The notes beneath the pieces were generated by a model. The model made no database searches. It was not told where the DNA came from and saw only the letters and a list, made by a program, of their open reading frames with translations. A stretch of 64,000 bases of DNA from Escherichia coli (GTDB lineage Bacteria > Pseudomonadota > Gammaproteobacteria > Enterobacterales > Enterobacteriaceae), in NCBI RefSeq assembly GCF_041886205.1, contig NZ_CP169029.1; one strand, 5' to 3'. Below, piece by piece: positions 34,056 to 45,575 of the stretch. How positions within the stretch are numbered: the first letter of the stretch is position 1; each line of letters begins with the position of its first letter. Made by a program: the position numbers and the translations under genes.

Positions 34056-35975
<1,920 letters not shown>

Positions 35976-41020: not shown

Positions 41021-41611
41021 GTGAGCTATTACGCCTTTGAGGGGTTAATTCCGGTGGTTCACCCGACGGCGTTTGTCCATCCCAGTGCCGTCTTGATTGG
41101 CGATGTGATTGTGGGAGCCGGTGTCTACATCGGCCCACTCGCCTCACTGCGTGGTGACTACGGGCGGTTGATCGTGCAAGCGGGAGCCAATATTCAGGAT
41201 GGCTGCATTATGCATGGCTACTGCGACACTGACACTATCGTTGGGGAAAACGGCCATATCGGGCACGGAGCGATCCTGCATGGTTGTTTGATTGGTCGCG
41301 ATGCATTGGTCGGGATGAACAGCGTGATTATGGATGGCGCGGTCATTGGCGAAGAGAGCATTGTTGCCGCCATGAGCTTTGTCAAAGCGGGCTTTCGCGG
41401 CGAGAAACGCCAGTTGTTGATGGGTACGCCAGCCCGCGCTGTACGCAATGTTAGTGACGACGAGTTACACTGGAAACGGTTGAATACCAAAGAGTATCAG
41501 GATCTTGTCGGGCGCTGTCATGTATCGTTACATGAAACGCAGCCACTGAGGCAAATGGAGGAAAATCGCCCCCGTTTGCAGGGGACGACGGATGTGACGC
41601 CTAAACGGTGA
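41021..41611 (+). CDS. caiE: Carnitine operon protein CaiE (hexapeptide-repeat transferase-like)
   Basis: Matches CaiE from (M)[17 protein letters not shown] with GTG start; track uses GTG at 41000. Confidence 0.9.
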
Positions 41612-41614
41612 TCT

Positions 41615-41672
41615 TGCCGGATGCGACCTGGTTGCTGGATAAGATGCTACAACATCGCATCTGGCAAGCAGG
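41615..41672. repeat. Imperfect REP-like hairpin between convergent caiE and caiF
   Basis: tgccggatgcgac ... atcgcatctggca is a near inverted repeat. Confidence 0.5.
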
Positions 41673-41696
41673 ACGCCCGGTATCAACGAGATAAAA

Positions 41697-42092
41697 TTAA
41701 CGACGCATACTCTTTGACAACATCATCTGCCACTTCTGCTCGCGGTTAAGTTCCGTGAGCGGAACGGCAGGAATACGCGGCGTCTTTCTTACACCGACTA
41801 ATTTTTCCCGACTGTTATTGCGCAGGCGCGCGTAAATTTGCTCATCGATATCGACCACTTTAACCAGTCGCTGACACTGGCATCCCCGCCCTTCCAGCTT
41901 ATTAGGGATCATCTTAACTTCGCAGCTTATTTCTGTGACTTCCGACAGAATATAAGTCAGGGTATTAACCGCCTTGCTGTGTTCAATATCGAAATGAATA
42001 GAGATCTCTCTTGCTATCACCCACCGATTTTCAGCCATCATCCATTCGGCGATTAACAAGTAGAGTGGTTTTTCAACATATCCTTCACACAT
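41697..42092 (-). CDS. caiF: Carnitine-responsive transcriptional activator CaiF
   Basis: Matches the 131-aa CaiF from MCEGYVEKPLYLLIAEWMMAENRW; track ORF extended 35 codons. Confidence 0.93.
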   Translation of the reverse strand: MCEGYVEKPLYLLIAEWMMAENRWVIAREISIHFDIEHSKAVNTLTYILSEVTEISCEVKMIPNKLEGRGCQCQRLVKVVDIDEQIYARLRNNSREKLVGVRKTPRIPAVPLTELNREQKWQMMLSKSMRR

Positions 42093-42281
42093 ACGAACTC
42101 CAGTTTCACAAATTAAAAGTCTGGCTATGACTCGTTTTGAAGCAATTAAACAAGGCCATATTAAAATTGTGGATATATCGATAGTATGCAACTTCACCGT
42201 CGATAAGTGTGAGCTAAATCCTGCTTATGTCATCAAAAATATCGATTCCCCAAAAGATTTACTTAATGGGCAAAAAAAAAC

Positions 42282-42310
42282 GGTCCTCATCAGAGAACCG
42301 TATTAGTTAT
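42282..42310 (-). terminator. Rho-independent terminator downstream of carB
   Basis: On the minus strand: 8-bp stem (one G-U pair) cggttctc/gaggaccg, 4-nt loop, then a run of nine T. Confidence 0.75.
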
Positions 42311-42353
42311 TCGATCAAATTAGCGGATGAAAAATATCTGCCATGACACGCTA

Positions 42354-45575
<3,222 letters not shown>

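Follow-up and report, generated by a model that had tools for sequence, protein, structure and literature searches.

The carB terminator of Escherichia coli is an ordinary intrinsic terminator that lies upstream of a probably separate caiF promoter

The window, by which I mean the whole 64,000-nucleotide stretch of Escherichia coli DNA analysed here, carries the carAB–caiF–cai region of K-12 as its reverse complement, and the features discussed below are therefore read on the minus strand unless stated otherwise. Positions were converted by K-12 = 76392 - window, a relation checked with two published sequence strings bearing K-12 coordinates; it places the carB stop at K-12 34038 and the caiF ATG at K-12 34300. 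A 731-bp query over the region of interest has a match of 95-100% identity in 5,424 of the 5,426 complete E. coli genomes, and the features annotated there are carB and caiF. The carAB operon is repressed by arginine and pyrimidines in rich medium. The first-pass annotation had delimited the stretch of interest as 42198..42353, limits that run from a meaningless in-frame GTG to the base preceding the carB stop and that have to give way to those of the true intergenic region, 42093..42353 (Table 1). The 166-aa "ORF" that opens at GTG 42197 was rejected: it is a mere in-frame upstream extension of caiF, and it is considered non-coding because the alignment between genera contains insertions and deletions that are not multiples of three. 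A 59-aa ORF on the opposite strand, 42127..42306 (+), runs antisense to the caiF promoter and reaches into the terminator; the PGAP annotation of some E. coli genomes has a longer version, of 72 aa, entered as a hypothetical protein, and in an older paper the interval is labelled yaaV/caiF. This antisense ORF looks spurious, since insertions and deletions between genera break its frame.

Table 1. Features of the carB-caiF region, in window coordinates
Feature	Position	Strand	Remarks
carB coding sequence (large subunit of carbamoyl-phosphate synthase, 1073 aa)	42354..45575	-	ORF list, E. coli genome annotation, translation
carB stop codon	42354-42356	-	
carB-caiF intergenic region	42093..42353		261 bp
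carB 3' UTR, from stop codon to Term-seq 3' end	42275..42353	-	79 nt
Terminator hairpin, stem ACGGUUCUC/GAGGACCGU, loop UGAU	42280..42301	-	fold and covariation
Terminator U-tract, 8 unpaired U	42272..42279	-	9 T in a row if the closing A-U pair is counted
Variable spacer between terminator and conserved caiF promoter block	42243..42271	-	about 29 nt; A1 columns 124-170
FNR half-site, 14-mer TTGATGACATAAGC	42223..42236	-	centre 42229.5, i.e. -55.5 relative to start 42174
CRP/FNR-like site CAGGATTTAGCTCACA, with a perfect TCACA half	42208..42223	-	centre 42215.5, i.e. -41.5, class II activator position; motif scan
-10-like hexamer TACTAT in the conserved block TTGCATACTAT	42181..42186	-	-12 to -7 relative to start 42174; no -35 match
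Interval containing the caiF transcription starts	42174..42198	-	genome-wide mapping, 42198 (Kim et al. 2012); start taken from primer extension, 42174
caiF 5' UTR (Shine-Dalgarno sequence GGAG; two conserved blocks)	42093..42173	-	fold not significant, z -0.30
caiF coding sequence (131 aa; activates transcription of the cai and fix operons)	41697..42092	-	ATG at 42092

The hairpin that follows carB begins 52 nt past the stop codon and is co-oriented with the gene. Its stem consists of nine pairs, including five G-C and one G-U. Folded alone, it has a free energy of -13.9 kcal/mol and a z-score of -4.39, and none of 200 dinucleotide shuffles folds as well. Chance expectation was assessed at two levels of stringency. 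A loose terminator scan of a 2.5-kb stretch gave 3 candidates where 2.8 are expected, and thus no enrichment; a strict scan of both strands of the 64-kb window, for which a minimum of 8 perfect pairs, 4 G-C pairs and 7 T out of 8 was set, returned 2 sites as against 0.1 ± 0.3 in 30 dinucleotide shuffles, and the carB terminator is one of these two. The sole other strict match, 50367..50389 (-), consists of AACCAGCACACTCGTTGCTGGTT followed by TTTTTTT and lies between the minus-strand ORFs 50406..51440 and 49125..50333. In the first-pass annotation the carB terminator had been put at 42282..42310; the hairpin that this interval overlaps is real, but the interval is shifted by about 9 nt towards carB, too far 5', and misses the U-tract. 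The distance of about 190 bp to the caiF start given there holds: the ATG lies 188 nt past the base of the stem and 180 nt past the last U of the tract.

The intrinsic terminators of E. coli operons, like those at trpA and rrnB, provide the class with which the carB element is to be compared. As in that class, a G+C-rich stem closed by a tetraloop is followed directly by 8-9 U, and the element is located soon after the stop codon that closes the operon, has a covarying stem and has RNA 3' ends in its U-tract (see below). There is no difference of substance, the closing A-U pair and the single G-U pair of the carB element being ordinary. Activity in both directions is not obvious from the sequence, since an A-tract mirroring the U-tract is missing and the plus-strand tail reads AUUAGUUAUU. 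Elsewhere in the region, a terminator-like hairpin, 41569..41584 (-), made up of CCCCTGCAAACGGGGG and a weak T-run, is found about 113 nt past the caiF stop, within the terminal 3' portion of the convergent caiE ORF (plus strand, end at 41611). This hairpin is a possible caiF terminator overlapping the caiE coding sequence.

A scan for CaiF, with one genome per species, yielded 55 loci, and carB lies directly upstream of caiF in 29 of them, at a distance of 221-292 bp. The genera that display this adjacency are Escherichia, Citrobacter, Salmonella (S. enterica subsp. arizonae and diarizonae), Pseudocitrobacter and Intestinirhabdus; in Proteus, Edwardsiella, Hafnia, Yokenella, Atlantibacter and others, carB was not found within about 2.5 kb upstream of caiF. 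Regions upstream of caiF that do not have carB as a neighbour are too diverged for alignment. Twenty-three carB-caiF spacers from the five genera were aligned (alignment A1), and the hairpin is present at the same position in all 23. Pairing of the stem is kept in 99.5% of the cells of the alignment, and five of the eight pairs have changed on both sides, giving compensatory variants such as CGGUUCUC/GAGGACCG, GGGUUUCU/AGAAACCC and UGGCUUCG/CGGAGCCG. The covariation score of the stem was reached by none of 500 shuffles, and sliding the partner strand by 1-3 columns, as a control, made pairing fall to 27-58%. The T-run that follows the stem is invariant in the 23 loci. Within Escherichia (e.g. 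loci L002-L006) the loop varies between UGAU, UGCU and GAAA, and in one lineage the U-G pair of the stem has become U-A (GAGAACCG); all Escherichia variants keep or strengthen the hairpin. Conversely, the first 52 nt of the carB 3' UTR, upstream of the hairpin, are not conserved outside Escherichia and cannot be aligned between genera. A covarying stem and an invariant T-run next to a 5' flank that cannot be aligned therefore indicate that selection acts on an RNA hairpin with its U-tract and hence on a functional intrinsic terminator. On the other side of the U-tract, in the variable spacer, the Citrobacter, Salmonella and Pseudocitrobacter loci (L009-L030) share an inverted repeat about 10 nt past the U-tract (A1 columns 131-146) that is conserved among them as CAGGTCATTCCTGG (variants CAGGTAATTCCTGG). 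This repeat has no counterpart in the window, where it would fall near 42255, Escherichia having a deletion of about 12 nt at that place.

Published mapping of RNA 3' ends locates transcript release in the U-tract. A Term-seq 3' end is listed at MG1655 34117 on the plus strand, with the flanking sequence CGCTAATTTGATCGAATAACTAATACGGTTCTCTGATGAGGACCGTTTTTTTTTGCCCATT and a modest read count of 2,828 (Adams et al. 2021, PMC7815308, supplementary file 1, sheet "M63 0.4"). This end corresponds to window 42275, the fifth unpaired U of the U-tract. It was called only in minimal medium and in neither of the two LB conditions of that study (Adams et al. 2021, PMC7815308), a distribution that fits the rich-medium repression of carAB mentioned above. 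The description of carAB as highly expressed in the first-pass annotation must accordingly be made conditional, given an end that is seen in minimal medium only, with a modest read count, and that is absent from both LB conditions. The supplements of a SMRT-Cappable-seq study were also searched, and no carB, caiF or coordinate entries were found in them.

The same data set classes the 34117 end as "orphan" (Adams et al. 2021, PMC7815308). One reading of that label is that the 79-nt carB 3' UTR is released as a small regulatory RNA derived from the 3' UTR, and a stable terminator with a long U-tract would suit such an RNA. Yet the class merely reflects the distance of the end, 79 nt, from the carB stop. 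The region 5' of the hairpin, where a seed would be expected, is the very stretch that is not conserved outside Escherichia; a 92-nt stretch comprising the carB 3' UTR and 13 nt downstream folds no better than its shuffles (z -1.81); and an Rfam scan of 41600-42500 at permissive E-values gave no family at threshold, the sub-threshold matches (L20 leader, 22 bits against the 58.7 required; ctRNA, 19 against 50) being attributable to chance. Since the would-be seed is not conserved and no Rfam family matches, release of a regulatory RNA from the carB 3' UTR is extremely unlikely.

As to the caiF promoter, primer extension by Eichler and colleagues is said to have placed the transcription start 82 nt upstream of the ATG, with a CRP motif at -41.5. 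I take this start to be window position 42174 (K-12 34218) and use it here as the reference for promoter positions. In alignment A1, a conserved block starts about 30 nt past the U-tract (window ~42242, about -68) and runs into the caiF 5' UTR; in E. coli it reads ATATTTTTGATGACATAAGCAGGATTTAGCTCACACTTATC...AAGTTGCATACTAT...ATATCCACAATTTTAATATGG. The FNR half-site in this block coincides with the FNR site described at -55.5 of caiF (Arense et al. 2013). The CRP/FNR-like site is the only CRP-like site of the region with at least 7 matches out of 10, its GCTCACAC portion is nearly invariant in the 23 loci, and its position is that of the best FNR motif of caiF, -41.5, in Table 1 of Myers et al. 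(2013). A sigma-70 consensus scan of the intergenic region found no promoter with two hexamers. This negative result is read as lack of a -35 element and not as absence of a promoter, as would be expected of one that depends on activators. The assumed start is thus consistent with the positions of the CRP-like site, the FNR half-site and the TACTAT hexamer and with the -41.5 motif of Myers et al. (2013), and also with the anaerobic sigma-70 ChIP-seq peak at K-12 34197. In addition, a genome-wide survey lists a weak start, supported by 4 reads, at K-12 34194 (Kim et al. 2012, supplementary file 2), which is window 42198. The promoter of the window thus resembles the caiF promoter as described (Eichler et al. 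1996; EcoCyc/RegulonDB), a class II CRP/FNR-dependent sigma-70 promoter, in its -41.5 site, its FNR half-site at -55.5, its -10-like hexamer without a -35 element and its anaerobic-specific sigma-70 occupancy; it differs in that the start of Kim et al. (2012) lies 24 nt further upstream.

These positions bear directly on the relationship between the two elements, since the carB terminator had been proposed to lie inside the caiF promoter region. Terminator and promoter do share one 261-bp intergenic region and are on the same strand. However, the U-tract is followed at 74 and 98 nt by the starts at 42198 and 42174, respectively. Numbered from 42174, the hairpin and U-tract span -127 to -98, so that they are not interposed between the promoter elements, which extend downstream from about -68, and the start. 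Of the two observations that were to speak against the original proposal, complete termination at the hairpin and a caiF start mapped downstream of it, the second is what was found. Whichever start is used, the terminator is therefore upstream of the caiF promoter rather than inside it.

Downstream of the start, two stretches of the leader are nearly invariant over the five genera: ATATCCACAATTTTAATATGG at the start site, 42153..42177 (-), and TTTTAATTTGTGAAA just ahead of the Shine-Dalgarno sequence, 42101..42118 (-). These conserved blocks could be protein sites, a suggestion made because NarL and H-NS repress caiF without a mapped site. A comparison of the sequences upstream of caiF with those of the cai-fix intergenic region, made with autoregulation in mind, revealed no common CaiF-box-like sequence above a 9-mer of A/T.

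The FNR occupancy data raise the question of whether regulatory DNA extends further upstream, beyond the terminator. The FNR ChIP-seq summit assigned to caiF is at K-12 34059-34065 (Myers et al. 2013), i.e. window 42327-42333, between the carB stop and the terminator and about 100 bp upstream of the annotated FNR and CRP sites. A summit on that side of the hairpin would be accounted for if the DNA of the hairpin and of its A/T-tract belonged to the caiF upstream regulatory region, either as part of an extended FNR-bound region or as a curved A-tract nucleating H-NS, the terminator then doubling as a promoter-distal element. A TTGAT half-site at 42318..42314 and the run of 9 A/T at -98 to -106 would fit such a role, and H-NS is reported to repress carnitine metabolism, probably via caiF. 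On the other hand, that half-site stands alone: upstream of the hairpin, neither FNR nor CRP motifs reach 7 matches out of 10. The stretch is not conserved between genera, the hairpin covaries as an RNA structure and is not fixed as DNA, FNR occupancy at caiF is about equal in the wild type and in an hns stpA mutant in published data, and an earlier ChIP-chip FNR peak, at 34153, adjoins the annotated sites. A regulatory region spanning the terminator is accordingly considered very unlikely, and the offset of the ChIP-seq summit is treated as imprecision of peak calling, because only a lone TTGAT is found upstream, in a stretch that is not conserved, and because the ChIP-chip peak lies beside the annotated sites.

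If the terminator precedes the promoter, the remaining question is whether carAB transcripts get past it. The first-pass annotation had suggested that they do: a leaky terminator would let carAB read-through supply FNR-independent caiF mRNA or occlude the caiF promoter, thereby coupling arginine and pyrimidine status to the regulation of carnitine metabolism. The arrangement lends itself to this, both genes being on the same strand and the release site only about 100 nt from the caiF start, and the order carB-terminator-caiF is conserved across five genera. Expression data provide a further argument. The sigma-70 ChIP-seq peak at 34197 has an occupancy of 364 in anaerobiosis versus 21 in the presence of oxygen, yet in glucose minimal medium caiF mRNA of the wild type changes by less than 2-fold between aerobic and anaerobic conditions despite this 17-fold change (Myers et al. 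2013). Such a discrepancy fits a basal, promoter-independent signal; it equally fits low expression of caiF in glucose, where cAMP-CRP is lacking. In the same medium, a condition in which carAB is on, caiF is scored as FNR-activated by RNA-seq (Myers et al. 2013). Furthermore, caiF mRNA has been reported to be monocistronic and dependent on FNR and CRP, and a caiF-lacZ fusion to be induced 20-fold by anaerobiosis. A perfect tract of 8-9 U behind a stable, covarying stem is the signature of an efficient terminator, and RNA 3' ends do map in that tract. The fold shows no antiterminator pairing, the 3' UTR upstream of the hairpin is not conserved, and Proteus and other genera have a working caiF that is not preceded by carB. 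Read-through as a determinant of caiF expression is therefore judged unlikely.

A stricter version of read-through, in which the terminator is a regulated device, was considered and rejected: in the fold of the 3' UTR the terminator stays intact with no competing helix, its 5' flank is unconserved, and there is no match to an Rfam cis-regulatory family. Like conditional terminators, attenuators and read-through circuits, the carB terminator sits between two co-oriented genes that are regulated differently. Unlike them, the carB-caiF region lacks a leader peptide and an antiterminator helix, the sequence 5' of its hairpin is not conserved, and no polycistronic transcript has been reported from it; its terminator is at the end of a 3' UTR instead of in a 5' leader.

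Natural intrinsic terminators commonly leak a few percent. A residual form of the leak can thus be formulated, in which a few percent of derepressed carAB transcription, under arginine or pyrimidine limitation, would escape and yield FNR-independent basal caiF mRNA or transient occlusion of the promoter, creating a weak link from nucleotide and arginine status to carnitine respiration. I regard such a link as highly doubtful; were it true, it could account for a change in caiF mRNA that stays below 2-fold with oxygen in glucose minimal medium while sigma-70 occupancy changes 17-fold. It would then be one more case of neighbouring operons coupled by gene context, of modest interest for carnitine bioprocess engineering, in which the caiF promoter was replaced. 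A second potential source of incoming transcription lies within carB itself, where an exact CTGGCCTTCGAATTGCA is found at 43114..43130 (-). This is the intragenic sense sigma-54 ChIP-seq site IS01, with its motif centre at K-12 33270 and caiF as the downstream gene, 1,027 bp away (Bonocora et al. 2015). Any transcript from IS01 would have to cross the carB terminator before reaching caiF.

The reading that best accommodates these observations, to which I assign a probability of roughly 85%, is that a canonical Rho-independent terminator ends carAB and is followed by a separate, activator-dependent caiF promoter, the terminator serving as insulation between the two. The carB element has every feature of an intrinsic terminator at the sequence and comparative levels, to which published 3'-end mapping in vivo is added. 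In the proposed sequence of events, polymerase coming from carB would copy the 52-nt non-conserved portion of the 3' UTR and, after it, the G+C-rich hairpin with its 9-bp stem and the 8-9 U that follow; the transcript is released within the U-tract, as shown by the published 3' ends at window 42275. About 30 nt further on, a self-contained sigma-70 promoter for caiF would begin, with the FNR half-site at -55.5, the CRP/FNR-like site at -41.5, TACTAT as its -10 element and no -35 element. It would fire only in anaerobiosis with cAMP-CRP and give rise to a caiF mRNA that is monocistronic and has about 82 nt of 5' UTR. The role of the terminator towards caiF would presumably be one of insulation, keeping arginine- and pyrimidine-regulated transcription of carAB out of a promoter that responds to oxygen and carbon source.

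Enterobacterial genomes routinely have a terminator, a short spacer and an independent promoter in this order between co-oriented genes, and descriptions of both parts already exist. The carB terminator is a known, ordinary feature and not a new regulatory device. What the analysis documents for E. coli and its close relatives is that carAB ends in a well-formed intrinsic terminator that has been maintained in evolution, with the caiF promoter as a separate unit just downstream, and that exact coordinates of these elements are available for annotation.
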